Positions 9,821-46,434 of a stretch of DNA of 64,000 bases are shown one piece after another. The DNA is from Chloroflexota bacterium. Lineage in GTDB: Bacteria; Chloroflexota; Limnocylindria; Limnocylindrales; CSP1-4. Each line of letters opens with the position of its first letter. Positions within the stretch are counted from its first letter, which is position 1. The notes below the pieces were generated by a model. It had not been told where the DNA came from and made no database searches. It saw only the letters and a list, made by a program, of their open reading frames with translations. The DNA is taken from positions 618,157 through 682,156 of the forward strand of contig CANJLL010000001.1 of NCBI GenBank assembly GCA_947475545.1, read 5' to 3'. The position numbers and the translations under genes were made by a program.

Positions 9821-10216
9821 TCAGCAGCTGAACGGCGACGGGGACGCCGGGACGGCCGGGCTCACCTCCAGCCGGACCCTGACGCCGTCGGTCCCATCAG
9901 CCTGAAACGTATTGGCGTAGATGGGGACCTGATCCGGGATCCGCGACACCTCGACGCGCCACGGCATCGCAGGAACCCGGTAGTTCCCGAACTGGGCCAC
10001 ATTCGGTGTGGCACCCTGATCCACGTCAACCACCGGCTCTCCGTTGATCGAGATCCGGAGCGCGAAACCTGTGGCGTTCTCGATCACAACGTGAAACCCG
10101 CCGCAGGCCTTCGGCGCTGAGGGGCCGATCGGCGTGGTCACGGGCGCGGCGGAGGTACAGCCCGCCACCAGGAGGAGCATCAGGACGAGAGCAGTGACCC
10201 GACGGATGACCGCCAC
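9821..10216 (-). CDS. Putative lipoprotein.
   Basis: Signal peptide plus lipobox MLLLVAGC↓TSA, then a small beta-rich body. No known domain recognised. Confidence 0.45.
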   Translation of the reverse strand: MAVIRRVTALVLMLLLVAGCTSAAPVTTPIGPSAPKACGGFHVVIENATGFALRISINGEPVVDVDQGATPNVAQFGNYRVPAMPWRVEVSRIPDQVPIYANTFQADGTDGVRVRLEVSPAVPASPSPFSC

Positions 10217-10227
10217 GGCGTCCTCCC

Positions 10228-11514
10228 CTAGCCGTGCGTGTGCGACGCCTCGGCTCGGGCGATGGTGTCCGCCAGCTCACCCACCGGCACCAGCGTCTGC
10301 GTGGCGGCGCGCAGGTCGCGCAGCGTGACGTTGCCGTCGGCCAGCTCGTCGCCCAGGATCACCGCGAAGTGTGCCCCGTCGCGGACGGCGGCCTCCAACT
10401 GCTTGCCCAGCTTGCGTCGGCCCAGCTCGGCCCGCGCCGCAATCCCCGCCCCCCGCAGGTCCGTGGCGACCCGCAGCCGGCCCACCGTGTCGTCCGGGTC
10501 AGCGCCCACCACCACGGCCACCGGCGCCGGCTCCGCGTCGGACGCCCCGCCCGTCTCCGCGAGCGCCAGGACCAGCCGGTCCAGCCCGATTCCGAAGCCG
10601 ATCCCGGGCGTGGGCCGTCCGCCCAGCAGCTCGATCAGCCCGTCATACCGGCCGCCGCCGCCCAGCGCCTGCTGCTGGCCCTCGCGGCCCGTCTTGTAGA
10701 ACTCGAACGCCGTCCGGGTGTAGTAGTCCAGGCCGCGGACCAGCGATGGCTCCAGCCGGTAGGCCACGCCCAGGGCATCCAGGTGCGCGCGGACGCCCGC
10801 CAGGTGCGCGGCGCACGCGTCACACAGGAACTCGGTGATCCGCGGCGCGGCGGCGTTCAGGGCGGTCATCGCCGGGTCCTTGGAATCCGGCAGGCGCAGC
10901 ACGTTCCGGTCGAGGCGCTCGCGCTCCAGCGGCGGCAGGGCATCAACGTGCCCCCGGTAGTAGTCCGTGAGCGCGGCGATGAACGACGGCCGGCACGCCC
11001 CGTCGCCGATGGAGTTAAGGAGCACCTCCACGCCGTCCAGCCCCGCCTCGCGGTAGAAGCGGAAGCCCAGCTCGATGATCTCCGCGTCGATCGCCGGCCC
11101 GGGATCACCGATCGCCTCCACGTCGAACTGGACGAACTGGCGATAGCGGCCGGCCTGCGGGCGGTCGTACCGGAACATGGGCCCCGTCTGGGTCAGCTTC
11201 ACCGGCTGCGGCCACGTCTGCATCCCGTGCTGGACGTAGGCCCGCATGATCCCGGCGGTGGGCTCGGGGCGGAGCGCCCAGCGCTCCGATTCCTCGGTCC
11301 GTGGCGCCAGCCGGAACAGCTCCTTCTGGACCACGTCGGTGACCTCGCCGATCCCGCGCTCGAACACGTCCGCCAGCTCGAACAGGGGCGTCGTGATCTC
11401 CCGGTAGCCGTAGCGGGCCGCGAGGTCGCGGGCGAGGGCTTCGAGGCGGGCCCAGGTTGGGCGTTCGGCCGGCAGCAGGTCGCGGGTGCCCCGCGGGGCT
11501 CGGTAGGTGGGCAT
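10228..11514 (-). CDS. hisS: Histidyl-tRNA synthetase.
   Basis: Class II motifs (RGTRDLLP, FRYDRPQAGRYRQFVQFDVE, GGGRYDGL) and the C-terminal anticodon-binding domain. Confidence 0.95.
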   Translation of the reverse strand: MPTYRAPRGTRDLLPAERPTWARLEALARDLAARYGYREITTPLFELADVFERGIGEVTDVVQKELFRLAPRTEESERWALRPEPTAGIMRAYVQHGMQTWPQPVKLTQTGPMFRYDRPQAGRYRQFVQFDVEAIGDPGPAIDAEIIELGFRFYREAGLDGVEVLLNSIGDGACRPSFIAALTDYYRGHVDALPPLERERLDRNVLRLPDSKDPAMTALNAAAPRITEFLCDACAAHLAGVRAHLDALGVAYRLEPSLVRGLDYYTRTAFEFYKTGREGQQQALGGGGRYDGLIELLGGRPTPGIGFGIGLDRLVLALAETGGASDAEPAPVAVVVGADPDDTVGRLRVATDLRGAGIAARAELGRRKLGKQLEAAVRDGAHFAVILGDELADGNVTLRDLRAATQTLVPVGELADTIARAEASHTHG

Positions 11515-11596
11515 GGCCCAAGTCTACGAGACAAGGCCGGCGGCGGGCCGCCCGGAGACTGCGCCGCCCCCGCCGCAGGCCGGCGCCTGAGCCGCC

Positions 11597-13846
11597 CTAC
11601 CCCAGGTCGCGCGAGACCGAGCGCACGTCGCGCAGCTGCTCGATGCGCCGGAAGACGCGGGCCAGCTGGCTGACGGAGGCCACCTGGATGGTGGCGCGGA
11701 CCACCGCGACCCGGTCGGGGTTGACCGTGACGCTCGCGGCGACGATGTTGACCTTGGCCTCCGCGACGATCTGGCTGATGTCGGACAGCAGGCCAGTTCG
11801 GTCGTAGGCCTCGACGCGGATCGCGATCGGATACGAATCGGTGGGCGCTCCCTCCCACTCCACGTCGATCAGGCGGCCCACCTCGCGCTCGTTGACCACC
11901 GTCGCGCAGCTCTGCTGATGCACGGTGACCCCCTTGCCGCGGGTGATGAAGCCGATGATGGGGTCGCCCGGGATGGGGTGGCAGCACTTGGCGAAGCGGG
12001 TCAGGAGATCCCCTACCCCCTTGACCCGGACCCCGCCCGTCCGCGGCGGTGTCGGCGGGGCGATGGTGGGCAGGACGAACTGCGCGTCGTCCACGACCCC
12101 CAGCTTCATCACCACCTGCTGGGCGCTGGGCGCGCCGTACCCGACGGCGGCGTAGAAGTCGTCCATGGTCTCGAAGCTGAACTGCTTGGCCACCTCGGCC
12201 AGACGCTCCGGCCCAACAGCCGCGGCCGACGTCCGCGCGAGGCGGCGGAGCTCGCGTTCCAGCGCCTCCCGCCCGTGGACGATGTTCTCGTCGCGGTCCT
12301 TGCGCTTGAACCACTGCCGGATCTTCTCCCGGGCATGGGACGTCCGGACCAGCGTCATCCAGTCGCGCGATGGGCCATGCTCGCCCTTGGTGGTCACGAT
12401 CTCGACGATGTCGCCGTTCTTGAGCCGGTAGTCCAGCGGGACGAGCCGGTTGTTGACCTTGGCCCCGATGGTCCGGTGGCCGACGTCGGTGTGGACCCGG
12501 TAGGCGAAGTCCAGCGGGGTCGCGCCGGCCGGCAGGTCCTTGATGTCGCCCTTGGGCGTGAAGACGAACACCTGGTCCTGGAAGATGTCGAGCTTGATCC
12601 CCTCGACAAAGTCCGTGGCATCCGTCGCATCGCGCTGCCAGTCCATCAGCTGGCGGAGCCAGGCAAGTTTCGCGTCGTACGCCCGATCGGCCTTGGTGCC
12701 GTCCTTGTAGCGCCAGTGCGCGGCGATGCCCACCTCGCTGACCTGGTGCATCTGCTGGGTGCGGATCTGGATCTCCAGCGGCTTGCCCTCGTACGCGATC
12801 ACCGCCGTGTGGAGCGACTGGTAGAGGTTGTTCTTGGGGACGGCGATGTAGTCGTCGAACTGGCCGGGGATGGGCCGCCAGAGCGCGTGGACGATGCCCA
12901 GGGTGGCGTAGCAGTCGCGCACGTCGTCGACCAGCACGCGGATCGCGTAGACGTCGTAGATGTCCTCGAAGTCGGCCTGCTTCCGCTGCATCTTCTTGTA
13001 GATGCTGTAGATGTGCTTGGGTCGCCCGCCAAGGTCCGCCTTGACGCCGGCAGCCTCCAGCCTGGGCCGGAGCTCCTCGATGGCACGGTCGATGAAGCCC
13101 TCCCGGTTCTTGCGCCGGGTGTCGAGGAGGCGGGCGAGCTCGCGGAAGTGCTCGGGCTCCAGCGTCTTGAACGAGAGGTCTTCCAGCTCCCACTTGATCT
13201 GCCAGATCCCAAGCCGCTCGGCAAGCGGGGCGTAGATCTCGATTGTCTGGCGGGCGATGCGCTGCTGCTTCTCCAGCGGGAGGGCGGTCAGCGTCCGCAT
13301 GTTGTGGAGCCGGTCGGCGAGCTTGACGAGCACGACGCGGATGTCGTCGGCCATCGCCAGGAGCATCTTCCGGATGTTCTCGGCCTGCCGCTGCTCGTGG
13401 CTGTGCGTGCTGAACTTGGACAGCTTGGTGACGCCGTCGACGAGGTGGGCCACCTCCGCGCCAAAGCGTTCCTCGACCTCCGCCAGCGAGACTTCGGTGT
13501 CCTCCGGGACGTCGTGGAGCAGCGCGGCCTGGATGGCGATTGGGTCAATCCCCAGCTCCGCGAGGATCCAGGACGTCGCGATCGGGTGCAGCACGTACGG
13601 CTCGCCGGAGGCGCGGCGCTGACCGTCGTGGGCGACCACCGCCAGGTCGAATGCCCGCTCGATGGGGCCGAGGTCCGCCTGCGGGTAGTGGTCCGCGATC
13701 AGCGCGAGGAGGTCTCGACGCAGCAATGGCAGGTCTGCCAGCGTGCCGACACCCGGCGCGCCAAAGGCCGTGACGGGCGCCATGGGCCGATTGCCACGCG
13801 GTCGGGGCGCGGCCGTCGTCTCGGGCTTGAGTGGCTCGACGGTCAT
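11597..13846 (-). CDS. relA: Bifunctional (p)ppGpp synthetase/hydrolase Rel/SpoT.
   Basis: HD hydrolase domain (HLVDGVTKL...), synthetase domain (RPKHIYSIYKKM...DIYAIRVLV), TGS and ACT domains. 749 aa. Confidence 0.95.
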   Translation of the reverse strand: MTVEPLKPETTAAPRPRGNRPMAPVTAFGAPGVGTLADLPLLRRDLLALIADHYPQADLGPIERAFDLAVVAHDGQRRASGEPYVLHPIATSWILAELGIDPIAIQAALLHDVPEDTEVSLAEVEERFGAEVAHLVDGVTKLSKFSTHSHEQRQAENIRKMLLAMADDIRVVLVKLADRLHNMRTLTALPLEKQQRIARQTIEIYAPLAERLGIWQIKWELEDLSFKTLEPEHFRELARLLDTRRKNREGFIDRAIEELRPRLEAAGVKADLGGRPKHIYSIYKKMQRKQADFEDIYDVYAIRVLVDDVRDCYATLGIVHALWRPIPGQFDDYIAVPKNNLYQSLHTAVIAYEGKPLEIQIRTQQMHQVSEVGIAAHWRYKDGTKADRAYDAKLAWLRQLMDWQRDATDATDFVEGIKLDIFQDQVFVFTPKGDIKDLPAGATPLDFAYRVHTDVGHRTIGAKVNNRLVPLDYRLKNGDIVEIVTTKGEHGPSRDWMTLVRTSHAREKIRQWFKRKDRDENIVHGREALERELRRLARTSAAAVGPERLAEVAKQFSFETMDDFYAAVGYGAPSAQQVVMKLGVVDDAQFVLPTIAPPTPPRTGGVRVKGVGDLLTRFAKCCHPIPGDPIIGFITRGKGVTVHQQSCATVVNEREVGRLIDVEWEGAPTDSYPIAIRVEAYDRTGLLSDISQIVAEAKVNIVAASVTVNPDRVAVVRATIQVASVSQLARVFRRIEQLRDVRSVSRDLG

Positions 13847-13889
13847 GGTTTCCGCAGTCTACCAGCGGCCAACGGGCGCTCCGCCCGGA

Positions 13890-15527
13890 TCACCGGCCGT
13901 CGCCGTAGCCCAGCAATGCGAGCGCCCGCCTGGCTTCCGCGACCTCGTCCCACGGCCGGGCGCCCGTCGGGCCGATGATCGAGGTCTCGTGACCCTTCCC
14001 GGCGAGCAGCAGCACGTCGCCCGGACGCGCCCGCTCCATGGCCGCCTGGATCGCCTCACCGCGATCCGCGATGAGCAGGAGATCGGTCCCGCGGCGTCGT
14101 CCCACCCGCTCCGCGCCCGCCGCGATCTGGTCGAGGATGGCCTCACGGTCCTCGGTGCGGGGATCCTCGTCGGTGACCACGACCAGCCGGCAGCGCTCGC
14201 CAGCGACGCGGCCCATCATCGGCCGCTTGGCCGTGTCGCGCTCCCCCGCCGACCCGAAGACGGCGATGACGCCGCCACCGCTCGCGGCAGCCAGCGGGCC
14301 GAGCAGGTCCAGCGCGGCCGTCAACGCAGCCGGGGTGTGCGCGTAGTCGACGATCACGCCGAACGGCTGGCCTGCCTCGACGCGCTGCATCCGCCCCGGA
14401 ACGGCTTCGACCGACTCCAGGCCGGCCCGGATCGCCGCGGGGTCCAGCGAGAGGGCCTCGCCCAGCGCGACCACGGCGAGGGCGTTGTGGGCATTGAATC
14501 GGCCGGCCAGGCGGAGGTCCAGCGTGCCAGCGCCGCCGGGGGCCTCGAAGCGCACGCGCAGGCGGCGCCGGTCCTCCTCGATCGCGATCGCCCGCACATC
14601 GGCGGCGACATCGGTGCCGTACGTGAGGACGCGGGCGCCAGCCAGGCGGGCCGCCCCGATGAACGCGGGGGCCGATGGGTCGTCGAGGTTCACGATGCCT
14701 GATCGGGGCCAGCCGGGCGTCGGTTTGGCGGGGCTCGCCGAGCCCACGGCCAGGCGCTCGAAGAGGGACCGCTTGGCCGCGAGGTAGGCGTCGAAGGTCC
14801 GGTGGAACTCGAGGTGTTCATGCGTCAGGTTGGTCAGGATCGCCACGTCGTAGGCGACCTCGGCGACGCGCTCCTGGGCCAGGCCGTGGGAGGTGGTCTC
14901 GACCACCGCTGCCGCGTCACCGGCGTCGACCATGGCCCGCAACATCGCCTGGACGGTGGGCGCCTCGGGGGTGGTCGCGTGGACGTCGTTGGCGGCCCGA
15001 ACCCGGCCAATCTGCGTGTCCACGGTGCCGATCAGGCCGGTTGCGATGCCGGCGGCCTCGAGCGCCGCGACCGCGAGGAACGACGTCGTGGTCTTGCCGT
15101 CGGTGCCGGTGATCCCTACAACGCCCAGGCTCCGCGAGGGATCGCCATACCACCACGCCGCTGCCGTCGCCAGGGCGCGACGGGTGCTCCGGACCAGGAC
15201 CTGCGGCAGGCTCACGCCCAGCACCACCCGCTCCACCAGGGCGGCAGCAGCGCCCGCCGCGGCGGCCCTGGCCACGTAGTCGTGGCCGTCGGCGTGTTCG
15301 CCGGGGACGGCAATGAACAGGTGGCCCGGCCTGACCGCGCGCGAATCGAACGCCAACCCGGCGATCGCGATGCCGAGACGGGACCCGCTCGAGGCCGCAC
15401 CGGCCACGTGTCCGCCGCCCGCCGCCGCCACCTGGTCCCCGGCACGAAGGCGCTCCACCAGGTCGAGCAACGGGCGCGGCGACCCGGGCTCCACGGCGGC
15501 CAGCAGCTCCTCGATCGCTCGGCTCAT
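13890..15527 (-). CDS. murE: UDP-N-acetylmuramoyl-L-alanyl-D-glutamate–diamino acid ligase (MurE).
   Basis: Mur ligase motifs GITGTDGKTTT, ATTPEAPTVQ, DEDPR and GKGHE. The C-terminus overlaps femX in an ATGA. Confidence 0.85.
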   Translation of the reverse strand: MSRAIEELLAAVEPGSPRPLLDLVERLRAGDQVAAAGGGHVAGAASSGSRLGIAIAGLAFDSRAVRPGHLFIAVPGEHADGHDYVARAAAAGAAAALVERVVLGVSLPQVLVRSTRRALATAAAWWYGDPSRSLGVVGITGTDGKTTTSFLAVAALEAAGIATGLIGTVDTQIGRVRAANDVHATTPEAPTVQAMLRAMVDAGDAAAVVETTSHGLAQERVAEVAYDVAILTNLTHEHLEFHRTFDAYLAAKRSLFERLAVGSASPAKPTPGWPRSGIVNLDDPSAPAFIGAARLAGARVLTYGTDVAADVRAIAIEEDRRRLRVRFEAPGGAGTLDLRLAGRFNAHNALAVVALGEALSLDPAAIRAGLESVEAVPGRMQRVEAGQPFGVIVDYAHTPAALTAALDLLGPLAAASGGGVIAVFGSAGERDTAKRPMMGRVAGERCRLVVVTDEDPRTEDREAILDQIAAGAERVGRRRGTDLLLIADRGEAIQAAMERARPGDVLLLAGKGHETSIIGPTGARPWDEVAEARRALALLGYGDGR

Positions 15528-16627
15528 CGCCCTGGTCCCGCGACCCTGGCCGCCACCCGCACCAGCGACAGGTGGCGCGGGCGAAGCACCCGCTCGTGCG
15601 CCCCTACCTGCTCGACGAACCGCGCCCCAAACGACAGCTTGTGCTGGTAGAGGCCGAACATCGGGTCCCCGGGCCGCGGCTCGTGGCGCGCGCCGGCGAC
15701 ATCCACGCCACCCAGGTCCATCTCCGCGCGCCCCTCGCGGGCGGCCAGCTGGATCGCGCGCCAGCGGAGCAGGTGGAGGACCCCGGGATGGTCGGCGCGC
15801 GCGGCCGCATCGTCGCCGGAGATCGCCGTCGAGAGGCGATCACCCTGGCGATAGAGCAGGAGACCCGCGATCGGGGTCACGCCCCCGGGAGCCCGCGCCT
15901 CCAGGTAGAGCGCCAGGCCGTCGGCATGCGCCGCGCGCAGCCACGCGAGGAATGGCCCGACGGGGCCCAACCCAAAGCCCCGCCGCTCCCCCGTGGCGGC
16001 CACCAGGCCGTGGAATTCGGCGAGGGCCGCCTCGAGGTCGCCGCGTAGGCCGGGCTCGAAGCCGGGTCCCGGGCTGGACCCGTCCTCGACCGCTGTGTCG
16101 AACCGGCGGACCACGATCCCCTCGGCCTCGGCCTGCCGGATCCGCTGCCGCGTCTGCTTCGAGACACCCGCCAGGAGCGCCGCTTCGTCCGCCCCGTCGA
16201 TGGCGAGCGACATCCGGTGCCGGTTGGGCTGGACCTCCTCGGCGGGACGGAAGCCCAGGCGCGCCAGCCGGTCCGCGTAGTCGGACGAGGCCGGGAGCTC
16301 TGCGTCCGTCGTGACGACGTCCAGCCCGCGACTCGCCAGCCAGTCCGTGACCGCCGCGAGGCGTGCGGCAACGTGTTCGGGCGTGTCCCCCGCCGTCACG
16401 GGACCGCGCGACAGGTACGCCTGCCCGCCTCCGAGCAAAGGCCATGGCCGGGTGAGCACGAGGACGGCCCGCCCGTCGGCGCAGACCAGGTGGCGGGCGC
16501 GCCAGCCCGTGGCGGCGCGGTGTCGTGCCCAGGCGCGCGACTGGAAGATCTGGCCGCCGGGGACATCCACCGTCAGCTTGTCCCACGCCGCCAGGTCGGC
16601 GGCGGTCGCCTCGCGCACGGCGGTCAT
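15524..16627 (-). CDS. FemAB-family peptidoglycan interpeptide-bridge aminoacyltransferase, copy 1. The start is trimmed to MTAVREAT.
   Basis: FemAB/FemX family fold signature (QSRAWARHRAATGW...LLYRQGDRLSTAISG...FGLYQHKLSFGA). The track ORF's Arg-rich N-terminal 240 aa overlaps the upstream gene and is rejected. The ATG at 16627..16625 overlaps the upstream stop (ATGA). Confidence 0.75.
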   Translation of the reverse strand: MTAVREATAADLAAWDKLTVDVPGGQIFQSRAWARHRAATGWRARHLVCADGRAVLVLTRPWPLLGGGQAYLSRGPVTAGDTPEHVAARLAAVTDWLASRGLDVVTTDAELPASSDYADRLARLGFRPAEEVQPNRHRMSLAIDGADEAALLAGVSKQTRQRIRQAEAEGIVVRRFDTAVEDGSSPGPGFEPGLRGDLEAALAEFHGLVAATGERRGFGLGPVGPFLAWLRAAHADGLALYLEARAPGGVTPIAGLLLYRQGDRLSTAISGDDAAARADHPGVLHLLRWRAIQLAAREGRAEMDLGGVDVAGARHEPRPGDPMFGLYQHKLSFGARFVEQVGAHERVLRPRHLSLVRVAARVAGPGR

Positions 16628-17835
16628 GCCAGGTCGCCGGCGCGCCCCCCGGGGCCCGCGGCCACTCCGCCGGCATCGTCCGGGGCCACGCCCGCGGGGC
16701 CCCCCGCGCCGGCATCGCCCCGGGTAACGCCCACGGCGCCAGCCGCGCCGGGGCCTCCTTCGGCCGCGACGGCGCCGGCCGCCCGCCGCTCCCGGTCCAT
16801 GCGTCGCCGGCTGAGCCGGACCCTGGCGTCCTGGCCTAGCGCGTAGACCCGTCGGCCGAACGGGTTGAGCACCAGGTCCCAGGCCCCGATGTACTCGACA
16901 TCTCGGCCGCCGAAGCCCGTCTTGAAGTGGGCGATCCCCTCGGTCACCTCGCCCCACATGTCGTAGCTGGTGCCGCCGGCCTCGCGGGACGTGCGGATGG
17001 CCTCCCACTTGAGCAGGTAGTTGGCGCGCGATTCGGCGCCGGCCGCCGTCATCCCGCCGTACGGCTCCACGACCCGCGGGCCGCAGCGGACGAGGAAGAG
17101 GGTGGCCTGGCCGCGGCCGTCCGGGGTCTGCGCGAAGAGCAGGCGGGCATTCCCCGCCGGCGCGAAGGCCTCCCAGATGTCGCGGTACGCCGACAGCGCG
17201 CGGATCTGGAAGCCGGCCCGCAGGGCCGTCTCCTGGTAGATGGCATAGAACTCCGGGAGCCGCTCCGCGCCCGCGTCGACCATCGCCAGGCCGGACGCCC
17301 GCGCCTTGTTGACATACTGGCGCCACTTCTTGCGCAGGTCGGCCCACAGCGCGGCCTCATCGGGTCGCAGGTCCACCAGCCTGGTCGAGCGAGGCTGAAT
17401 CGCGGGCGCCGGGCGCCAGCCCGCGTCGCGCAGCGCCGCCCGGAAGGCGCCGTCGGCGTCGTGCGGACCGTCCGCCTCGATCTCCGGGTCGATCCGAAGG
17501 TGCGAGATGGGGCCCGCGATGCGCGGGAGCTGGGCGCGAACGGCGGCCGTGAAGGCGGCAACGCCGGCCGGATCCCAGGAGCTGGCGACGGGGCCGCGGG
17601 GGGCATAGGCAAAGCCCCACGGCAGGGGCCTCGGCCGCGTGACCAGGACCTGCATGCCCATCCGGCCACCAGGGACATCGGCCAGGATGCGGGCCGACCG
17701 CCAGCCGTTCACCGCCTTGACGGTCGCCCAGCCGGCGAACTGGAGGTACGAACCCAGCTCGGTGGACGCGACGAAGTCGTCCCACCGCTCGGGATCGGCG
17801 GCGATCGTGGAGGCCGACGCCTCGGCGGCTGGCAT
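16624..17835 (-). CDS. FemAB-family peptidoglycan interpeptide-bridge aminoacyltransferase, copy 2, with a Gly/Ala-rich C-terminal tail. The start is trimmed to MPAAEASAS.
   Basis: FemAB signatures (QFAGWATVKAVNGWRSARIL...LLKWEAIRTSREAGGTSYDMWG...FKTGFGG). The start codon overlaps the murJ stop (TGATG). Confidence 0.75.
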   Translation of the reverse strand: MPAAEASASTIAADPERWDDFVASTELGSYLQFAGWATVKAVNGWRSARILADVPGGRMGMQVLVTRPRPLPWGFAYAPRGPVASSWDPAGVAAFTAAVRAQLPRIAGPISHLRIDPEIEADGPHDADGAFRAALRDAGWRPAPAIQPRSTRLVDLRPDEAALWADLRKKWRQYVNKARASGLAMVDAGAERLPEFYAIYQETALRAGFQIRALSAYRDIWEAFAPAGNARLLFAQTPDGRGQATLFLVRCGPRVVEPYGGMTAAGAESRANYLLKWEAIRTSREAGGTSYDMWGEVTEGIAHFKTGFGGRDVEYIGAWDLVLNPFGRRVYALGQDARVRLSRRRMDRERRAAGAVAAEGGPGAAGAVGVTRGDAGAGGPAGVAPDDAGGVAAGPGGRAGDLA

Positions 17836-19406
17836 CACGACCGCGCGCGGCGCCGGAGGAGGTCGGTCATGACCGCGACGATAGTTGGCAGCTCGCGGAT
17901 GCGCAATGCGGCCGCCAGGGCGAGGTAGGCCGCGCCGCCCGCAGCCCCGGCCAGGCCGGCCTGGAGCAGGAGCACCGGCCGGGCAGGATCTGGGCCAACG
18001 ACGCCTGCCAGCCCGCCGTTCGCCGCCCAGCTGACGGCGGCCGCCATGACGCTGGCGAGGCTCGCCGCGACCGTCATGCGGAGGACCGGGAGCAGGTCCA
18101 GTTCGGCGTGACGCCGGTCCAGGATCACGAACAGCACGATCGCCTCGATCCATGCCGCGATCGCAATCGCGAGCGCCAGTCCCGCCAGGCCCAGGGGCCC
18201 GACCAGCACCACGGCCAGGCTGGAGTTGATGGCCACCGCCAGGATCGCCGCCGCGACCGGCGTCCGGGTGTCCTGGCCGGCGTAGAACGCCCGGGCCAGC
18301 AGGGCGATCGCCGAGTGAGCGGCGAGGCCCACCAGGAAACAGAGCAGCGCATCCGAGGTCAGCGCGATGGCCCGGTCGTCGAACCGGCCGTAGTCGAAGA
18401 GGAGCGTGACCAGCTCCGTGCGCAGGACCATGCCGATCCCCGTGATCGGCAGCATCACGAAGAGGAGCACCCGGAGCGACCGCGTCAGGAGCTCCAGGAA
18501 GTCCCCCACTGCGCCGGTCGCGAGGTCGCGCGCCATCGACGGGAACACGACCGTTCCCAGCGGGACGCCGATGACGCCGATCGGGATCTGCAGGAGCGTG
18601 AAGGCGAAGTTGAACGCGGAGATGGCTCCCGCCCCCAGCCCGGAGGCCAGCGTCGTGGCCACAACGAACGTGATCTGGCTGGCACCCATTCCGATCGCCC
18701 GCGGCACCATCAGGGCCATTGCCCGACGCGCGGCTGGGTCGGCCGCGTCCAGCGCCGGGCGGTAGCGGAACCCCAGCCGTGCGATCGGCGGGAGCTGGAT
18801 CAGCAGGTTGAGCGCAGATCCGGCGACGACACCGGCCGCCAGGCCGGTCACCCCCATGGCCGGGGCCAGGATGACCGCGCCGCCGATGATCGCGAGGTTG
18901 TACAGGACCGGCGCCAACGCTGCGGCTGCGAACCTGCCCTCGGCGTTGAGCACGCTGGTGGCCACCGCACCCAGCGCCAGGAGAATGGGGCTGGCCAGCA
19001 TGAGCCGCGTCAGACCCACCGTCTGCTCGACCTGCGCGCGGCTGAACCCGGGCGTCATCGCGTCGATCAACTGGGGCGCCAGGACCGCGAGGATGGCCGC
19101 CAGGACCGCGAAGGCGACCAGCATCAGGTTGGTGACGGTGCTCACCACGCGCCAGGCCCGATCACGCTCCCCGGAGGCCAGCAGGCCGGCGACGATGGGG
19201 ATCAGCGCGGAGCCGAGCGCGCCGGCGGCCACCAGCTGGAAGATGAGGTCCGGGATCCGGAAGGCGGCGAAGAAGGTATCCAGCTCGCCCGCCGCGCCGA
19301 ACGTGCCGCCGATGACAACCAGCCGGAGCCAGCCCAGCGCCCGTGACAACAGGAAGGCGGCGGTGACGATCAGGCCCGCCCGGGCAAGCGTTCGGCTGCG
19401 GGTCAC
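17835..19406 (-). CDS. murJ: Lipid II flippase MurJ (MviN). The GTG start overlaps the xerC stop.
   Basis: A 14-TM MOP-superfamily protein with the conserved N-terminus LSRALGWLRLVVIGGTFGAAGELDTFFAAFRIPDL. Confidence 0.85.
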   Translation of the reverse strand: MTRSRTLARAGLIVTAAFLLSRALGWLRLVVIGGTFGAAGELDTFFAAFRIPDLIFQLVAAGALGSALIPIVAGLLASGERDRAWRVVSTVTNLMLVAFAVLAAILAVLAPQLIDAMTPGFSRAQVEQTVGLTRLMLASPILLALGAVATSVLNAEGRFAAAALAPVLYNLAIIGGAVILAPAMGVTGLAAGVVAGSALNLLIQLPPIARLGFRYRPALDAADPAARRAMALMVPRAIGMGASQITFVVATTLASGLGAGAISAFNFAFTLLQIPIGVIGVPLGTVVFPSMARDLATGAVGDFLELLTRSLRVLLFVMLPITGIGMVLRTELVTLLFDYGRFDDRAIALTSDALLCFLVGLAAHSAIALLARAFYAGQDTRTPVAAAILAVAINSSLAVVLVGPLGLAGLALAIAIAAWIEAIVLFVILDRRHAELDLLPVLRMTVAASLASVMAAAVSWAANGGLAGVVGPDPARPVLLLQAGLAGAAGGAAYLALAAALRIRELPTIVAVMTDLLRRRARS

Positions 19407-20425
19407 GATCGGCCCGCCGTGGCGTCCGGGGCCGGGCCTCGGCCCAGCGCAGCCGTGCGGGCCCGCGGGTGAGCGGCGCGATAGGCATCCTGCAGGCGCG
19501 CCGGCGAGACGTGGGTGTAGATCTGCGTCGTGGCGAGATTCTCGTGGCCCAGCAGCTCCTGGACCACCCGCAGGTCCGCGCCACCGTCGAGGAGGTGCGT
19601 GGCGAAAGAGTGGCGCAGCGTGTGCGGCGAGACGCCCTCCGGCAGGCCCGCAAGGCGGCACAGGCGGTCCAGTCGGAAGCGGAGCCCCCGGACACCGAGC
19701 GGGGCGCCGAGGTGGTTCAGGAAGACCTCCGTTGGCTCAGCCGTGGCCCCCCCGGCCAATGCCAGCAGGACGGGACGACCGTCGTCGAGGTACTCGCGGA
19801 GGGCGCGCCGGGCTGGCCGGCCCAACAGCCCGATCCGCTCCTTCCGGCCCTTGCCCACCACCCGCAGCTCGCCGCGACGCAGGTCCAGCCAACCCAGCTG
19901 GGCCGCCGCCAGCTCGCTGATGCGCAGGCCCGCGGCGTATGCCACTTCGACCAGCGCCCGGTCCCGCAGCGCGATCGCCCTGAGGCGCTCGGGACGACGG
20001 CCAGGGCGAGCCGGGTCCACGATGGCGGCAGCCGCCAGGTCATCCTCCACGGCGGCCAGGAGCCGCTCGACCTGTTCGACCTCCAGGACGCGCGGCAGGC
20101 GGGCCGGGAGACGAGGCGTCGCGATGGCGCTCCACGGGTTGGCCTCGGCGAGTCCGGCCCGGCCGGCGAAGCGGTAGAAGGATCGAACGGCGGCGAGCCG
20201 CTGGGCGACGGTGGTGCGCGCGCCCGTCTCGCCCAGGTGGGCCAGGTAGTCCCGCAGGTCCACGCGAGGGGGACGGCGCCAGTCCAGGCCGCGCTCGTTC
20301 AGCCAGGCGAGATAGGCCCTGACGGCGGTCGCATAGGCCCGCTGCGTGTGAGGCGACGTGTCGCGCGCGGCGAGAATCTCAAGGAACCGCGCGAGCGCGG
20401 CGTTGGCGTCCGACGCCGGGCTCAC
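19403..20425 (-). CDS. xerC: Tyrosine site-specific recombinase of XerC/XerD type. The GTG start overlaps the topA stop.
   Basis: An N-terminal SAM-like core-binding domain (TQRAYATAVRAYLAWL) and a catalytic domain carrying the R..HxxR..Y motif (HTLRHSFATHLL...LLGHENLATTQIYTHV). Confidence 0.8.
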   Translation of the reverse strand: MSPASDANAALARFLEILAARDTSPHTQRAYATAVRAYLAWLNERGLDWRRPPRVDLRDYLAHLGETGARTTVAQRLAAVRSFYRFAGRAGLAEANPWSAIATPRLPARLPRVLEVEQVERLLAAVEDDLAAAAIVDPARPGRRPERLRAIALRDRALVEVAYAAGLRISELAAAQLGWLDLRRGELRVVGKGRKERIGLLGRPARRALREYLDDGRPVLLALAGGATAEPTEVFLNHLGAPLGVRGLRFRLDRLCRLAGLPEGVSPHTLRHSFATHLLDGGADLRVVQELLGHENLATTQIYTHVSPARLQDAYRAAHPRARTAALGRGPAPDATAGRS

Positions 20426-22851
20426 GCCTCCGGAGCGCTCTCTTTGGGTGACGTGCGCCGGGCCGCCGGCCGCGCCGCGCTCCGGGTTGCCGTGGTCCGC
20501 GGGCGCGTGGCTCGGGCTGCGCCGGCAGCCGCCGTGCCGGCGCGCCGCGCGGCCCGCGGCGCGGCCAGGATTGATGGGTTGGGCTCGCCGCCGGGCAGCC
20601 GCGTGCCAACCCACTCGTCGTCAGGCGGCGGCGTGATCGCGGCGCCGCACTTCAGGCAGATGGGATCCTCGCCCTTGCGCGCCACGAGGCCGTCGTCCAC
20701 GTCGTGGACTGCGCCGAGCGGCTCGAAGTTGGAGGTGTAGTCGCACTTGGGATACGCCGAGCATCCCCAGAAGACATTGCCGGTCCGCCGGGCGCGACGC
20801 GCGACCAGGTGGCCGTCACCGTTCCTCGGGCAGGACACGACGAACGGGAGCTGGGGCGGCGGCGGGGGGCCATCCTTCTTGATGAACTTGCACTCCGGGT
20901 AGCGCGAGCAGCCAACGAACGGGCCGAACCGGCCTCGCTTGGACGTCAGCACGCCCTCGCCGCACTCGGGGCACGCCTCGCCGGTCCCGGGCAACGCGGG
21001 CTGCTCCTCGCCCGGCAGCGGACGCGACTCCTTGTGCTCGGGGAAGAGCGAGCAGGCGAGGAAGCGGCCGTTCCGGCCCAGCCGGATGACCATGGGGTGG
21101 CCCTCCGAGCAGACCTCGTCCGTCTCCTCGGTCGATCGATGGGTTGACTTCTTCTTCTCGGCGACACGCTCCGCGAGCGGATCGTAGAAGGCGCGGAGGA
21201 ATGGCACCCAGGGGCGCTCGCCGCCCGCGACCTCGTCGAGCTCCTCCTCCATCCGGGCCGTGAAGGCCAGGTCGACGTACTCGCCGAAGTGCTCGACCAG
21301 CCAGCCCGTGACGATGACGCCGATCTCCTCCGGCCGGAGGCGGCGCTCCTCGACCCGGACGTAGCCGCGATCGAGGATCGTGGAGATGGTGGCGGCATAC
21401 GTGGATGGCCGGCCGATCCCGCGCTCCTCGAGCGCCTTGATCAGCGTCGCCTCCGTGTAGCGCGGCGGCGGCTCGGTGAAGTGCTGGGTGGGCGTGACCG
21501 CCAGGACATCGGTGGCATCGCCCGCGACCAGCGCCGGCAGGCGACCCTCCTCGTCCTCGGCCGCCTCGTCGTCGCGCCCTTCCGTGTAGACGCGGCTGAA
21601 GCCGTCGAACAGCGTCTTGGAGGCGGTGGCTCGCAGGAGATAGCGGCCCGCGTCCAGCTCCGCGGTGTTGGTCTCCAGCTCCTTGGGGGCCATCTGCGAC
21701 GCGATGGCGCGCTGCCAGATCAGGCGATACAGGCGCAACTCATCAGTCTTGAGGGCGCCGACCAGCGAATCCGGGTCCCGTTCGAAGCTGGTGGGCCGGA
21801 CCGATTCGTGGGCCTCCTGGGCGCCCTTGGCCTTGGTCTTGAAGACCCGCCCCTTGGGCATCGTGTAGGGAGCGCCGTAGCGCCGCGCGATGACGTCACG
21901 GGCTTCCCCCATGGCCACCGCGGCCATCGCGGTGGAGTCCGTTCGCATGTAGGTGATCAGGCCGACCTGGCCGTCCGGCGTCTCGACGCCCTCGTACAGC
22001 CGCTGCGCGACGGACATGGTCCGCTTGGGGCTGAAGCCCAGCTTGCGACTGGCCTCCTGCTGCAGGGTGGACGTGGTGAAGGGCGCCGCCGGGTTCCGCT
22101 TGCTGGTCCGCGTGCCGATGGAGGCCACGACCGGACGGATGCCGGCGAGGGCCTCGGCGTGCACAGCGGCCGTCTCACCGTCGGACACGTCGACGGCGGC
22201 GCCGTCGATTCGCACGACCTCAGCGTCGAACTGGTCGCCGGCCGCCGTGGCGAGGCGCGCGGCGAGGCTCCAGTACTCGCGGGCCGTGAACGCATCCACC
22301 TCGCGCTCGCGCTCCACCACGAGGCGCACGGCGACGGACTGGACCCGCCCCGCGGAGAGGCCGCTTCGGACCTTGCGCGACAGGAGCGGGCTGAGGGTGT
22401 AGCCGACGAGCCGGTCTACGATCCGCCGCGCCTGCTGGGCGTCCACCAGGTTCATGTCGATCTGGCGTGGGTGGGCGAAGGCCTCGCGGATGGCGCCGGC
22501 CGTGATCTCGCTGAAGGTGACCCGCTGCGTCTTGGCCGCCGGCACGTTGGCCGCCTCGGCGACGTGCCAGGCGATGGCCTCGCCTTCACGGTCAAGGTCT
22601 GTCGCGAGGATGACGATATCGGCGCTGCGCGCAGCCTTGGAGATGGCGTCGACCTGCTTGCGTCGGTCGTCCGAGACGACGTAGTCGGGCGCGAAGTCGT
22701 TGTCCACGTCCACGCCGAACTTCCCCTTGCCGGGGTTCTCGGGCAGGTCACGGACGTGGCCATATGAGGCCAGGACACGGTAGTCGTCGCCGAGGTAGCG
22801 CTCGATCGTCCGCGCCTTGGCCGGCGACTCGACGATCACCAGGTGCTTCGG
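20422..22851 (-). CDS. topA: DNA topoisomerase I with C-terminal tandem Zn-ribbon domains and a basic tail. The start is trimmed to MPKHLVIVESPAKA.
   Basis: A Toprim domain (IVESPAKARTIERYLG...LATDLDREGEAIAWH), the catalytic Tyr region, and C-terminal CxxC...CxxC repeats. Confidence 0.95.
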   Translation of the reverse strand, partial: PKHLVIVESPAKARTIERYLGDDYRVLASYGHVRDLPENPGKGKFGVDVDNDFAPDYVVSDDRRKQVDAISKAARSADIVILATDLDREGEAIAWHVAEAANVPAAKTQRVTFSEITAGAIREAFAHPRQIDMNLVDAQQARRIVDRLVGYTLSPLLSRKVRSGLSAGRVQSVAVRLVVEREREVDAFTAREYWSLAARLATAAGDQFDAEVVRIDGAAVDVSDGETAAVHAEALAGIRPVVASIGTRTSKRNPAAPFTTSTLQQEASRKLGFSPKRTMSVAQRLYEGVETPDGQVGLITYMRTDSTAMAAVAMGEARDVIARRYGAPYTMPKGRVFKTKAKGAQEAHESVRPTSFERDPDSLVGALKTDELRLYRLIWQRAIASQMAPKELETNTAELDAGRYLLRATASKTLFDGFSRVYTEGRDDEAAEDEEGRLPALVAGDATDVLAVTPTQHFTEPPPRYTEATLIKALEERGIGRPSTYAATISTILDRGYVRVEERRLRPEEIGVIVTGWLVEHFGEYVDLAFTARMEEELDEVAGGERPWVPFLRAFYDPLAERVAEKKKSTHRSTEETDEVCSEGHPMVIRLGRNGRFLACSLFPEHKESRPLPGEEQPALPGTGEACPECGEGVLTSKRGRFGPFVGCSRYPECKFIKKDGPPPPPQLPFVVSCPRNGDGHLVARRARRTGNVFWGCSAYPKCDYTSNFEPLGAVHDVDDGLVARKGEDPICLKCGAAITPPPDDEWVGTRLPGGEPNPSILAAPRAARRAGTAAAGAARATRPRTTATRSAARPAARRTSPKESAPEA

Positions 22852-22987
22852 CATTTCGGGCCGGAGTGTAGCACCGCCTCCTTCGTCCGCCCTTATCCGG
22901 ACGTGGAGTCCGCCCGGCGGCGGCGCCCTCGCGCGCACCCGCGCCCAGGCGCGGGGGAACGGCGATCGGCCGGCCGGCGCCGCCCGC

Positions 22988-23344
22988 TCAGACGTCCCGG
23001 ACGCGGCGGAGCAGCTCCTCGTTGATCTCCAGCTCCGCCTCGGGCTCGGGCTCGGGCTGCCGTGGCGCGGCCTTGCGACCGCCCCCACGCGCCGCGGGCT
23101 TCTCCTGGCGCCCGGCTGAGAGCGCCGCGGCGCCTTCCGAATCCCGGTGGACCTCGATGAACCGAATCAGCGTGTACGGGAAGTAGAAGATGGATTCCGC
23201 GTCGTCAATCCAGATGGGCCGCTTGCCATTCAGCTGCCGCAGGTTGGTACAGACCAGGATCGAATCCCCCGGCGTCGGACGATCAAGGATGTCGGCCAGC
23301 AAGGGCTGCTCGTTGACGATGTGCAGGACGGCGTCGCGGATCAC
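22988..23344 (-). CDS. Hypothetical conserved small protein of 118 aa.
   Basis: A clean ORF between topA and the CAP gene with protein-like composition (LVCTNLRQLNGKRPIWIDDAESIFYFPYTLIRFIEV). No family recognised. Confidence 0.4.
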   Translation of the reverse strand: MIRDAVLHIVNEQPLLADILDRPTPGDSILVCTNLRQLNGKRPIWIDDAESIFYFPYTLIRFIEVHRDSEGAAALSAGRQEKPAARGGGRKAAPRQPEPEPEAELEINEELLRRVRDV

Positions 23345-23388
23345 GGGCAGGGCGCCTCAGCGGTCTTGGGTCGATGGGCCAGCATGGC

Positions 23389-25029
23389 TCAGAGCGGATG
23401 GTAGAAGTCGATGACCAGCCTGACACGGCCGGCCGTGACCCAGACGGCCAGGCCCACCCGGTCGTACTTGGGATTCATCATGTTGACGTAGTGGCCGCCG
23501 CCGGTCGACCGCTCGCTCTGGAAGAACAGGTGCGTGTTGAGCATCGACCAGTACGGGTCGACGCCGTTCTGGCAGCCCAGGTTCTCGGCCCAGACATAGC
23601 TCGTGTAGCCCGCTGCGGCCAGCCGGTTGCCGGGGTTGCCGTTGATGAAGTGGCTGCACAGGTCGTTGTCCGACAGGTACCTGGCGTATGGCCGGCTCAC
23701 GGTCGACGAGATCCCGCCGTCGATCCAGAGCGGCGCCGTGGCGTTGCTGCCGCCGCCGGCACAACTCCCGTCGCCCTGGACCCAGCCGCCGGTCCGCGTG
23801 CAGTTCATCAGCGTGAGGTAATACGCCTCGACCGCGGCCCAGGCTCCCGCCCCGACCGCGCCGCCGCCCGTCCCCGGAGGCGGCGTCGGCGCCTTCGTGG
23901 CCGGGTTGGCGATGGTCGTGAACGTGCCAGAGACCGCCGAGCCCAGCGCCACGCCGGCCTTCGACGCGGCGTCGGGCCCCACGGTCATCACCACGGCCTG
24001 GCCGTAGCCGAAGGCGCTGGCGGGCTGGAAGACCAGCACGGTGTCGCCTTCGGCAAAGCTGACCTTGCCCGACACTGGCGCATCACCCGCGGTCACCAGC
24101 CAGCCGGCCGCGGTCGACGCCTGGTCCATCGCCTCGGTGAACCGGACCGAGAGCGCCTGGACGAGCGCGACGTCCTTCGTGCCCGTCTGGGGACGGAAGC
24201 GGACGACGCCCGGCCGGTCGGCCGTCTGCACGACGAGTGGCGCCTCCAGGGAGACGGCCCCGTTGTCGGCATCCCGCGCGCCCGGGCCCAGGTCGAACGT
24301 ATACGACGTGTTGGGGACGAGCGGGTCGTCCGGGGTGAACCGGTAATGCACCTGGCCGTCCGCGCCGTCCTCGCGTCGGAGGCTGCCACTCACCGGCGGG
24401 TCACTGGTCATGTGGACTGTCCGATCGTCGACCGGGCGGTCGAACTGGACCAGGATGTCGGTGCCCGGTGCCACCTTCTTCCCGAGCAGGGTCCCGGCCG
24501 AGAGCGTGGCACGCGTCGCGGGCCTGGTCTGGAAGGTGGCCCAGATGGGATCCGCGGTGGGGCGGCCGGATGCCAGCAGGGCGCCAGCCTCGATGGTGAC
24601 CGTGGTCTGTGTGCCAGGCGCCCACGCCTCGCGCGGACGGACGACCAGCTCCGTGCCGTCCGGCGCCCAGGTGAGGTCGACCGGGGTGGGCGGCTCGACG
24701 AAAAGGAGCGCCGCGACGCTGCGCGGGTCCATGGGAGCACCGAAGTGCAGGGTGATCGGCGACACGGGCGAGTCCCCCGTCTCCACGGTCGTGGCCCGCA
24801 CCGGGTCCAGGCGCGGAGTGGAAGCCTGGGTGGTCTCGGCTGGCGACGATCCCCGGGCCGTGCCGTCGTCCCGCGCCGACGCCTGGAGCAGCGCGGCACC
24901 GGCAACCCCGACCAGCGCAGCCAGCGCGACCACCGCGACGCGGAATCCGACCGACCGGCGGAGCCCGACCGCGAGGTAGACGAAGACCACGACCGGGAGC
25001 GCGAGCAGCGCGGTGGCGATCTTTCGCAA
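23389..25029 (-). CDS. Secreted or membrane-anchored protein with Ig-like (BIG-type) repeats and a C-terminal CAP/SCP/PR-1 domain.
   Basis: N-terminal TM/signal sequence, repeated beta-rich segments, and the CAP signature GGHYVNMMNPKYDRVGLAV...LVIDFY at the C-terminus. Confidence 0.65.
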   Translation of the reverse strand: MRKIATALLALPVVVFVYLAVGLRRSVGFRVAVVALAALVGVAGAALLQASARDDGTARGSSPAETTQASTPRLDPVRATTVETGDSPVSPITLHFGAPMDPRSVAALLFVEPPTPVDLTWAPDGTELVVRPREAWAPGTQTTVTIEAGALLASGRPTADPIWATFQTRPATRATLSAGTLLGKKVAPGTDILVQFDRPVDDRTVHMTSDPPVSGSLRREDGADGQVHYRFTPDDPLVPNTSYTFDLGPGARDADNGAVSLEAPLVVQTADRPGVVRFRPQTGTKDVALVQALSVRFTEAMDQASTAAGWLVTAGDAPVSGKVSFAEGDTVLVFQPASAFGYGQAVVMTVGPDAASKAGVALGSAVSGTFTTIANPATKAPTPPPGTGGGAVGAGAWAAVEAYYLTLMNCTRTGGWVQGDGSCAGGGSNATAPLWIDGGISSTVSRPYARYLSDNDLCSHFINGNPGNRLAAAGYTSYVWAENLGCQNGVDPYWSMLNTHLFFQSERSTGGGHYVNMMNPKYDRVGLAVWVTAGRVRLVIDFYHPL

Positions 25030-25159
25030 GCAAGGTCTCCGGGTTGGCGCGCCCTGGAATCGGCAGGGATGGATCTCTGCGACCGGTGGGCGCCCGGACG
25101 TCGGAACGTCACGGTAGCACCGGCCCGTTCAGGCTGGCAACCGAGCGATCTCCACTGGC

Positions 25160-26602
25160 CTATCCGTCCGGGTTGCGCGGTCCGGCCGGCGGTCCGGCCG
25201 AAGCGATCGAGAGCGGCGAGGGCGCCCCGGACAGGACCCCGGCCGGGCGAAATCGGCCGTACGCACCAGTCACGAGCCCCCGGCCCTCGAGCAGGGTCAG
25301 CGTGCCGAGCACCGTCGCCACCGGCAGCCCGAGGTCGCCGACCAGCTGGTCAACCGTCGCCAAGCCGCGCATGAGCCCGTTTGCCACCTGACGCTCCACG
25401 GCTCCGAGGGCAGCCACCATCGCGCTGGAAGCCGGAGGCCGCGGTCGAGCCCGGACGCGGACGCGCGCCTCACCGCGTCGGGCCTGGGGTGCGACCTCGG
25501 TCTCGAGCAGGTCCAGGTCCTCGAGGAGTTGCGGGATCCCCGCGACGATCCGGGCCTCGCCGGAACACTCGCGCAGGAACGCGAGGCAGCCCGCGGACAT
25601 CGGCGCGTCGATGGGTCCGGGAACCAGGAAGCAGCCTCGGCCCTGCTCCAGGGCCCAGGCGGCGGTGGTCAGGGCCCCGCTCCGCTCGGCCGCCTCGATC
25701 ACGACCGTAGCCTCAGCGAGGCCACTGATCACACGGTTGCGACGTGGGAACGTCCCGGCCATGGGATGGACATCCGGGGCGAACTCGGAGACGACGGCCC
25801 CGCCGCTCCGGGCAATCTCATCGGCCAGTCGGGCGTGGGCCCTGGGGTAGAGCGATCCGTGGCCACCGCCGAGCACGGCGACCGTCCGGCCGCCCTCTGC
25901 CACCACCGCCGCGTGGGCGGCACCGTCCACCCCGATGGCAAGCCCGGAGATGACACAGGCACCCTCCCGGGCGATGGCCGCCCCAATCTGGGCGGCAAGC
26001 CGCCTGCCGCTGTCCGTGGGCCGCCGAGTCCCGACGACGGCCACGGCACGAAGCATGTCCATCGCGGCCGGGTCCCCCTTGACGAACAGCGCGTGGGGCG
26101 GGAGGGCGATCTGGCGGAGCCGGGCCGGGTAGGCGGCATCCGCCAGCGTGACCACCGACAGCTCGGCCCGACGGATCCGGTCCAGGATACGGTCGGCGGC
26201 ACCGGCGGCCTCGACGACGCGGCCCGCCACCCCGGCCGACAGGCCCCCGCCCCGCTCGGGATCCCGCCCCGCCTGGGCGAGGAGTTGCTCCGCGCGCGGA
26301 CCTGCCGCCACCCTGAGCGTCGCCGCAGCGCCGCCGAGCGCATCGAGCAGGCGGCCAAGCGTCGCCGGGCCGAGGCCATCGACGCTCACGAGGATCGCGA
26401 GCGCGTCCCGCTCGGCCCCGTCGGCCGCCACCGCCGCTGCGCCGGCCGACGCGCCTCCGCCGCCATCGCGATTGATCCCGCGGTCGACCGCGATCCCGTC
26501 CCAGGACGACGCCGGGCCCGGGCCGGGACCCACCGCCATCTCCGGCCGACCGGGCCCATCCACGTCGCGGCCCAGCGGCCCGAATCGTCCGATTCCGAGC
26601 AT
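25160..26602 (-). CDS. dprA: DNA-processing protein DprA (Smf). The start is placed at MLGIGRF, 2 nt after the comM stop.
   Basis: Rossmann-like DprA core GTRRPTDSGRRLA...SGLAIGVDGAAHAAVVAEGGRTVAVLGGG...RNRVISGLAEATVVIEAAERSGAL, plus a C-terminal winged-helix extension. Confidence 0.85.
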   Translation of the reverse strand: MLGIGRFGPLGRDVDGPGRPEMAVGPGPGPASSWDGIAVDRGINRDGGGGASAGAAAVAADGAERDALAILVSVDGLGPATLGRLLDALGGAAATLRVAAGPRAEQLLAQAGRDPERGGGLSAGVAGRVVEAAGAADRILDRIRRAELSVVTLADAAYPARLRQIALPPHALFVKGDPAAMDMLRAVAVVGTRRPTDSGRRLAAQIGAAIAREGACVISGLAIGVDGAAHAAVVAEGGRTVAVLGGGHGSLYPRAHARLADEIARSGGAVVSEFAPDVHPMAGTFPRRNRVISGLAEATVVIEAAERSGALTTAAWALEQGRGCFLVPGPIDAPMSAGCLAFLRECSGEARIVAGIPQLLEDLDLLETEVAPQARRGEARVRVRARPRPPASSAMVAALGAVERQVANGLMRGLATVDQLVGDLGLPVATVLGTLTLLEGRGLVTGAYGRFRPAGVLSGAPSPLSIASAGPPAGPRNPDG

Positions 26603-26604
26603 GG

Positions 26605-46425: not shown

Positions 46426-46434
46426 CGTCGCCGC

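Follow-up and report, generated by a model that had tools for sequence, protein, structure and literature searches.

A conserved six-gene overlap chain from topA to murE in Limnocylindria, proposed to be one leaderless-type operon translated by reinitiation

Overlaps of −4 or −1 nucleotides (nt) between neighbouring genes lead to tight termination–reinitiation coupling, which is lost at spacers of around 20 nt; such gene pairs require a short distance, and a Shine–Dalgarno (SD) motif is dispensable for reinitiation in some lineages (PMC6728339, PMC10666635). In high-GC bacteria, leaderless genes are marked by a TANNNT hexamer around 12 nt upstream of the start codon (Zheng et al. 2011, PMC3160421). 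Here we analysed a 64-kb stretch of DNA (‘the window’; GC content of around 71% throughout) from a Chloroflexota bacterium of the class Limnocylindria, in which six minus-strand genes, topA, xerC, murJ, femX2, femX1 and murE, follow each other in succession at positions 13890–22854 (8,965 nt). Like the coupled pairs described by Huber et al. in 2019 and 2023 (PMC6728339, PMC10666635), these genes are joined by co-directional ATGA, GTGA and TGATG overlaps. Unlike those pairs, the chain has five junctions in series that connect six genes of two unrelated pathways, its first gene is apparently leaderless, and we infer the coupling by comparison. We propose that the chain is one leaderless-type transcription unit with internal cistrons translated by termination–reinitiation, and we place the probability of this reading at roughly 0.7. 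The mechanism—4-nt overlaps behind a leaderless first cistron—is already known; the combination of genes appears to be undescribed, and we found no description of it in the literature on Limnocylindria peptidoglycan or on murJ/femX/murE operons.

Parts of the chain resemble several described neighbourhoods. Co-localization of dprA and topA is reported from 14 of 24 phyla; a small gene often separates the two, as in dprA-smg-topA of Neisseria meningitidis (PMC5817196). The window shares with this arrangement a same-strand dprA homologue (PF02481) upstream of topA, as well as a small gene directly before topA; it differs in that a gene for a Big_5/CAP-domain protein stands between, topA has its own −10 box, and an open reading frame (ORF) of 118 amino acids (aa) sits at the smg position, to which it corresponds by position alone. 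In Bacillus subtilis the region presumably runs dprA-topA-trmFO-codV(xerC-like)-clpQ-clpY-codY. Here, too, a Xer-type recombinase gene follows topA; unlike in Bacillus, there is no trmFO and no clpQY (hslVU), and xerC overlaps topA directly and runs into cell-wall genes. On the cell-wall side, the dcw cluster likewise places murE among further late genes for peptidoglycan precursors, in an extended co-directional array that is often co-transcribed. The chain does not qualify as a dcw cluster: its murE lies between a fem gene and relA rather than beside ftsI, murF or mraY; window 7835–29406 (within 10 kb on either side) contains no further mur or fts gene; and neither murJ nor the fem genes are classical members of dcw. 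Fem-type branch-peptide loci include femX and femAB of Staphylococcus aureus, murMN of Streptococcus pneumoniae and femX of Weissella. The chain is like these Gram-positive loci in its paired FemAB transferases, which presumably add successive residues to the position-3 side chain. It is unlike them in that its fem pair is embedded between murJ and murE and in that both proteins are far from the FemX equivalog (NF047883; FemX2 scores 60.1 against a cut-off of 500, and FemX1 has no NCBIfam match).

Gene order and stop/start overlaps

The six genes of the chain, in order of transcription, are:

20422–22854, minus strand: topA, type IA DNA topoisomerase I (810 aa), the first cistron
19403–20425, minus strand: Xer-type tyrosine recombinase gene, xerC/xerD-like (340 aa), called xerC here
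17835–19406, minus strand: murJ, lipid II flippase (523 aa)
16624–17838 (GTG start) or 16624–17835 (ATG start), minus strand: femX2, FemAB-family aminoacyl transferase (404 or 403 aa)
15524–16627, minus strand: femX1, second, more divergent FemAB-family protein (367 aa)
13890–15527, minus strand: murE, Mur ligase for the third stem-peptide residue (545 aa), the last cistron of the overlap chain

At each of the five junctions the stop codon of one gene overlaps the start codon of the next:

20422–20425, minus strand: GTGA, topA stop with xerC GTG start (−4)
19403–19406, minus strand: GTGA, xerC stop with murJ GTG start (−4)
17833–17838, minus strand: GTGATG, murJ stop TGA (17837–17835) with femX2 GTG at 17838 (−4) and ATG at 17835 (−1), both in frame
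16624–16627, minus strand: ATGA, femX2 stop with femX1 ATG start (−4)
15524–15527, minus strand: ATGA, femX1 stop with murE ATG start (−4)

All five junction strings named in the preliminary description of this locus are present on the minus strand at the positions it gave. Its span of 13890–22851 is correct at the lower end; at the upper end, the topA ATG occupies 22854–22852 and the feature ends at 22854. It read the murJ/femX2 junction as TGATG at 17833–17837 with a 1-nt overlap. That string is there, and the longer GTGATG also permits the 4-nt overlap that relatives use. The junction reads GTGACG in L001, the closest related locus (95–98% amino-acid identity), where the GTG must be the femX2 start because the ATG is absent.

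The overlaps depend on where the genes begin, and the preliminary description had trimmed long N-terminal extensions to obtain them. This trimming was right. We obtained independent gene calls for window 7835–29406 and 46030–64000; the call on the source contig (ENA ERZ27280162, k141_3159332; 502,520 bp), in which the locus differs from the window by 1 mismatch in 21,572 nt, uses the same starts, with proteins of 810, 340, 523, 403, 367 and 545 aa and overlaps of −4, −4, −1, −4 and −4. Among the matches listed, MurJ homologues are mostly 521–527 aa in length. The discarded extensions of murJ, femX2 and femX1 have the codon-position GC profile of the upstream gene’s frame and not of their own, and in relatives the frame often offers no start other than the overlap codon up to the point at which homology begins. 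On these four lines of evidence we rejected the longer extensions as true starts, with codon-position GC being ambiguous for xerC because the topA tail is of low complexity. The topA start itself is conserved and is the sole in-frame candidate in many relatives.

Conservation provides far stronger evidence than the single sequence. A MurJ-based scan of one genome per species yielded 39 loci and an alignment-based metagenome scan a further 80 contigs, giving 119 related loci, labelled Candidatus Limnocylindrales, Chloroflexota and similar, in which MurJ identity is 49–97%. The MurJ protein search and the metagenome scan returned the closest relatives only (55–100% identity), and the distribution described here is that within Limnocylindria. 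The order (Big_5/CAP protein)-topA-xerC-murJ-fem-fem-murE-relA-hisS is preserved in nearly all 119 loci, and a stop/start overlap is retained at 85–98% of the resolved chain junctions. The comparison of synteny that the preliminary description had suggested therefore found both order and overlaps kept across related loci, and the chain is lineage-conserved. Among the loci that could be resolved, the counts are:

topA/xerC: overlap in 57, spacer in 10 (7–52 nt)
xerC/murJ: overlap in 78, spacer in 12 (4–24 nt), from 90 resolved loci
murJ/femX2: overlap in 63, spacer in 3; relatives use GTGA or ATGA at −4
femX2/femX1: overlap in 49, spacer in 1
femX1/murE: overlap in 45, spacer in 3
murE/relA: overlap in 0, spacer in 28 of the loci examined

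Variation in order is limited to the fem genes, which may be swapped, reduced to one or present in an extra copy. In L010, around 2.2 kb with a third fem-like gene (13766–15996) is inserted between femX1 and murE; in L031, a fem-like gene (12123–13256) follows murE; and in L016 (9329–11445), the two fem genes are swapped, there is a 234-nt gap, and murE is preceded by its own −10-like hexamer.

Such overlaps could be a passive by-product of compaction: stop codons would be scarce in a small, GC-rich genome, reading frames would extend into one another, and each gene would be translated independently. Limnocylindria genomes are small (mean of 2.39 Mbp, 68.9% GC; PMC10608941), and −4 is the commonest intergenic distance in prokaryotes (PMC10666635). 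Overlaps also occur at around 18% of the other co-directional junctions between called genes in the window (4 of 22, versus 5 of 5 in the chain), close to the background of around 15% reported for most prokaryotic groups (PMC6728339). Base composition matters as well: third codon positions in these genes are G, C, T and A at frequencies of 0.42, 0.50, 0.05 and 0.033, respectively, and GTGA is expected by chance at around 42% of TGA stops. Because it arises so often, support for the topA/xerC and xerC/murJ junctions comes from conservation, together with N-terminal homology, and not from the string itself; the xerC start is GTG in 26 of the 26 related loci that were aligned.

Compaction fails, however, to explain why five overlaps are kept when murE/relA has none in 28 loci, or why neighbouring junctions in these loci keep gaps of 43–133 nt. 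It also leaves unexplained the conserved, rare A- or T-ending last codons that create ATG and TTG. Dozens of genomes conserve ATGA or TTGA at femX1/murE and femX2/femX1, despite the rarity of A and T at third positions; the last femX1 codon in relatives is usually the rare CGA, and the femX1 start codon itself varies between ATG, GTG and TTG. The retention of such codons at these two junctions directly indicates selection on the overlapping start codons, and the comparison as a whole strongly supports selection on the overlap architecture. Moreover, signals for independent initiation (an SD motif or a −10 box), both of which are used elsewhere in the genome, are not visible at the overlapped starts. 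We consider it unlikely that compaction alone accounts for the chain.

Promoter-like boxes and start contexts

Two extended −10-like boxes flank the chain:

22865–22873, minus strand: TGCTACACT, in a 133-nt gap, ending 10 nt before the topA ATG
13856–13864, minus strand: TGGTAGACT, in the 43-nt murE–relA spacer, ending 9 nt before the relA ATG

We propose that TGCTACACT marks the start of a leaderless or near-leaderless transcript and that TGGTAGACT marks the downstream boundary of the coupled chain. The pattern TGNTANACT has only two matches on both strands of the 64-kb window, one before topA and the other before relA. In relatives, TAnAnT lies 6–10 nt before the topA start in 52 of 53 loci (at 7 nt in 33), with a TG extension in 41, and no other non-coding element of the locus is as well conserved as this TGnTAnACT box. 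Counted from the topA start, the first T of TACACT lies at −16 in the window and at −13 in most of the genome loci that were aligned. With no SD motif and a TANNNT hexamer, for which the expected place is around 10–13 nt upstream, topA shows the signal of the TA-led genes of PMC3160421.

A census of −10 hexamers, which we used in place of a consensus promoter scan, found 11 minus-strand TAnAnT hexamers in 64 kb, six of which are 6–10 nt before gene starts, including those of topA, relA and hisS. Their scarcity and placement point to widespread leaderless-type promoters in this genome. No coding-strand TAnAnT occurs inside the 8,965-nt chain of the window. In relatives, the box at topA is followed by none until relA (TAGACT or TATCCT) or hisS, apart from around 6 stray hexamers in around 30 chains, and most related loci with a readable murE–relA spacer have TAGACT or TATCCT 7–12 nt before the relA ATG.

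Start contexts in the genome are of three kinds, judged from 27 called genes. The first, TAnnnT at −12 to −16 with no SD motif, is the context of first genes and is found at a comM-like gene, topA, relA, hisS, aspS and the gene for a ParA-like response regulator. The second, a GGAGG-type SD motif at −9 to −16, is often found at genes that follow positive gaps. The third comprises genes with stop/start overlaps, most of which have neither a TAnnnT box nor an SD motif. When SD-like 4-mers at −20 to −6 were counted across all loci, they were present at 2 of 57 topA/xerC, 4 of 78 xerC/murJ, 1 of 63 murJ/femX2 and 4 of 45 femX1/murE overlaps. An internal cistron that has no promoter, has no SD motif and starts on the preceding stop is in the configuration for which reinitiation has been demonstrated, and reinitiation is for this reason the most likely mechanism here. 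Initiation driven by an internal SD motif was considered and rejected; in the window, a GGAGG upstream of xerC ends 1 nt short of the GTG, and relatives do not conserve it.

Two separate messages, topA–xerC and murJ–fem–murE, could nonetheless arise from undetected internal promoters (used by an alternative sigma factor or rich in GC) or from RNA processing. The two halves of the chain are functionally unrelated, a consensus promoter scan has no power in DNA this rich in GC, and a −10-like hexamer lies inside the chain in a few relatives, upstream of murE in L016 and of a fem gene in L031. Yet the census found no coding-strand TAnAnT in the chain of the window and very few in those of relatives, and translation of an internal transcript would still have to begin at an SD-less start. 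Separate messages therefore strike us as quite improbable.

Several observations weigh against a single unit translated by reinitiation. The junctions that use GTG rest on conservation, which is partly explained by shared ancestry. At femX2/femX1, an SD-like 4-mer is present in 20 of 49 loci, and independent initiation is possible at this start. Some lineages tolerate spacers of 7–52 nt (topA/xerC) or 4–24 nt (xerC/murJ) with no SD motif; in these, either coupling is dispensable or another mode of initiation operates. The promoter call is based on a −10-like hexamer alone, and promoters for other sigma factors may lie inside the chain; a consensus sigma-70 scan of 10000–27000 found 0 promoter-like sites, a result that is uninformative at 71% GC. 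Finally, no terminator is evident after murE, and transcription may run on into relA and hisS. A scan for terminators in 10000–27000 found 3 terminator-like sites versus 3.3 expected and is likewise uninformative at this GC content. A hairpin over the murE stop was rejected as a terminator (−22 kcal/mol, but z = −0.14 relative to shuffled sequences), and the murE–relA spacer is just 12–24 nt in many relatives.

Other features of the surroundings are recorded here. The six start-proximal hexamers on the minus strand are at 747, 11526, 13861, 22870, 57193 and 60950; the plus strand has 3 TAnAnT hexamers in 64 kb, and one at 42949 lies ahead of tRNA-Met. In 12 of 53 relatives (for example, L004, L009, L015, L022 and L038), an inverted repeat, GG(G)TCC-N4-8-GGACC(C), lies around 20–45 nt upstream of topA and abuts the −10 box; it is absent from the window and might serve as an operator or form a small hairpin behind the upstream ORF. 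In many relatives an ORF with an ending similar to that of the 118-aa ORF (RRIREV) lies 30–130 nt upstream of the topA box. Nearly all genes across more than 43 kb (window around 831–44030) are on the minus strand, so that the chain is embedded in a very long co-directional run, within which unit boundaries are set only by short spacers with −10-like boxes. Scans for tRNAs and Rfam families in the window found no RNA element in or beside the chain; the sole tRNA is the tRNA-Met at around 42.8 kb. Near-identical contigs of around 502 kb from ENA ERZ27280162 and ERZ27280169 (L040 and L041) cover the window, and the genome has been recovered at least twice.

DNA-processing genes, cell-wall genes and their joint

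The upstream half of the chain belongs to a DNA-processing neighbourhood, in which a comM-like Mg-chelatase gene is followed by dprA (2 nt), the Big_5/CAP-domain protein gene, the 118-aa ORF, topA and the recombinase gene:

26603–28167, minus strand: comM-like gene, with its own TAGGGT box at −13
25160–26602, minus strand: dprA, tightly packed with the comM-like gene as a DNA-processing pair (L040 1240–4247)
22988–23344, minus strand: conserved 118-aa ORF between the Big_5/CAP protein gene and topA, called as a gene and with no Pfam match

TopA scores well above the cut-off of its equivalog model (TIGR01051; 786.1 versus 456.4 bits) and has Toprim and Topoisom_bac domains and three zinc-ribbon stretches (Pfam and NCBIfam). 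The recombinase has the Pfam domains Phage_int_SAM_1 and Phage_integrase and the motifs HTLRH, LGH and IYTH; the HxxR, H and Y residues and the domain layout fit a Xer-type tyrosine recombinase. Its scores fall below the cut-offs for the XerC equivalog (TIGR02224; 282.8 versus 335.15 bits), XerD (260.7 versus 329.6) and the PRK00283 subfamily (273.1 versus 279). With scores under both the XerC and XerD equivalog cut-offs, a role in chromosome-dimer resolution is putative.

In the downstream half, MurJ exceeds the cut-off of its equivalog model (TIGR01695; 333.6 versus 235.55 bits) and also matches PF03023; a 100% identical 523-aa protein is already on record (P0001). Both Fem proteins belong to the FemAB family (PF02388, cut-off of 24 bits; 101.1 for FemX2 and 57.1 for FemX1). 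The best solved relatives of FemX2, which ends in a low-complexity tail rich in Ala and Gly, are the S. aureus lipid II:glycine glycyltransferase (6snr; E = 3.7e-17) and Weissella FemX (E = 1e-13), and FemX1 matches 6snr with E = 4e-8. MurE exceeds the cut-off of its subfamily model (TIGR01085; 459.7 versus 257.3 bits), and its closest solved relatives are MurE ligases. One motif in MurE bears on wall chemistry:

14157–14168, minus strand: EDPR (aa 454–457 of MurE), at the position of DNPR in MurE enzymes that add meso-diaminopimelate (meso-DAP), aligned to TDDNPR of Mycobacterium tuberculosis and Escherichia coli

The Arg of the meso-DAP motif DNPR is kept here and the Asn is replaced by Asp; relatives have DEDPR or EEDPR in 25 of the 25 cases in which the motif was located. 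The Asn and Arg of DNPR contact the distal carboxylate of meso-DAP, and specificity is unreadable from the motif alone (PMC3829189). A MurE with EDPR beside two Fem genes is consistent with branched peptidoglycan of the Lys or Orn type.

The preliminary description had suggested that, through the chain, chromosome topology and segregation are directly linked to peptidoglycan synthesis. What speaks for such a link is co-expression only, and there is no sign that the two halves interact. A direct link would mean that TopA, the Xer recombinase or both are needed in a fixed ratio with MurJ, the Fem proteins and MurE, or act with them in one process, for example at the division site, where Xer recombination meets the export of septal lipid II; the xerC/murJ overlap would then be a hard-wired connection of dimer resolution or decatenation to the export of septal precursors. 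The retention of this overlap in 78 of 90 loci, even though MurJ is just 49–66% identical, agrees with that idea. The overlap is, however, replaced by a spacer of 4–24 nt in the other 12, fem content varies between lineages, and the recombinase is under the XerC equivalog cut-off. Furthermore, 55–70% of closely spaced gene pairs in E. coli and Haloferax encode no subunits of a complex (PMC10666635), the DNA-processing neighbourhood of topA and xerC is much older (PMC5817196), murJ–fem–fem–murE is functionally coherent as a cell-wall module by itself, and our literature searches found no paper on the gene combination. We regard a fixed-ratio or division-site role as very unlikely; the present evidence provides no new mechanism and no new link between segregation and the wall. 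The joint of the two modules is best read as a small, compact genome co-expressing housekeeping genes for growth and the cell cycle, with no evidence that the proteins act together.

An operon model for Limnocylindria

In the single-unit model that we favour, transcription would start at an extended −10 promoter that ends 6–10 nt before the topA start codon, and the mRNA from which topA is translated would, because of this short distance, have no leader or almost none. None of the five downstream cistrons is preceded by its own promoter-like box, four of the five lack an SD motif, and each start codon overlaps the preceding stop ([A/G/T]TGA). With these features, the downstream cistrons would rely mainly on ribosomes that finish the preceding gene and reinitiate in place, so that the output of all six genes would be tied to one promoter and to topA translation. 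From the translational coupling of six genes that the preliminary description proposed, the overlap chain and its comparative support are retained, and the coupling itself is a deduction from sequence.

The unit would join an old DNA-maintenance neighbourhood (comM-dprA-...-topA-xer) to a cell-wall module in which MurE is expected to add the position-3 residue, the two Fem transferases to build the side-chain branch and MurJ to flip the finished lipid II. For the wall itself, the motif and gene content predict a position-3 residue that is probably not meso-DAP and a side-chain branch that is built in two steps. More broadly, the locus offers a concrete operon model—one leaderless-type promoter and five serial reinitiation junctions—for an uncultured class that is widespread in soil and freshwater, and it may be a natural case in which a leaderless first cistron and SD-independent reinitiation jointly express a long operon.

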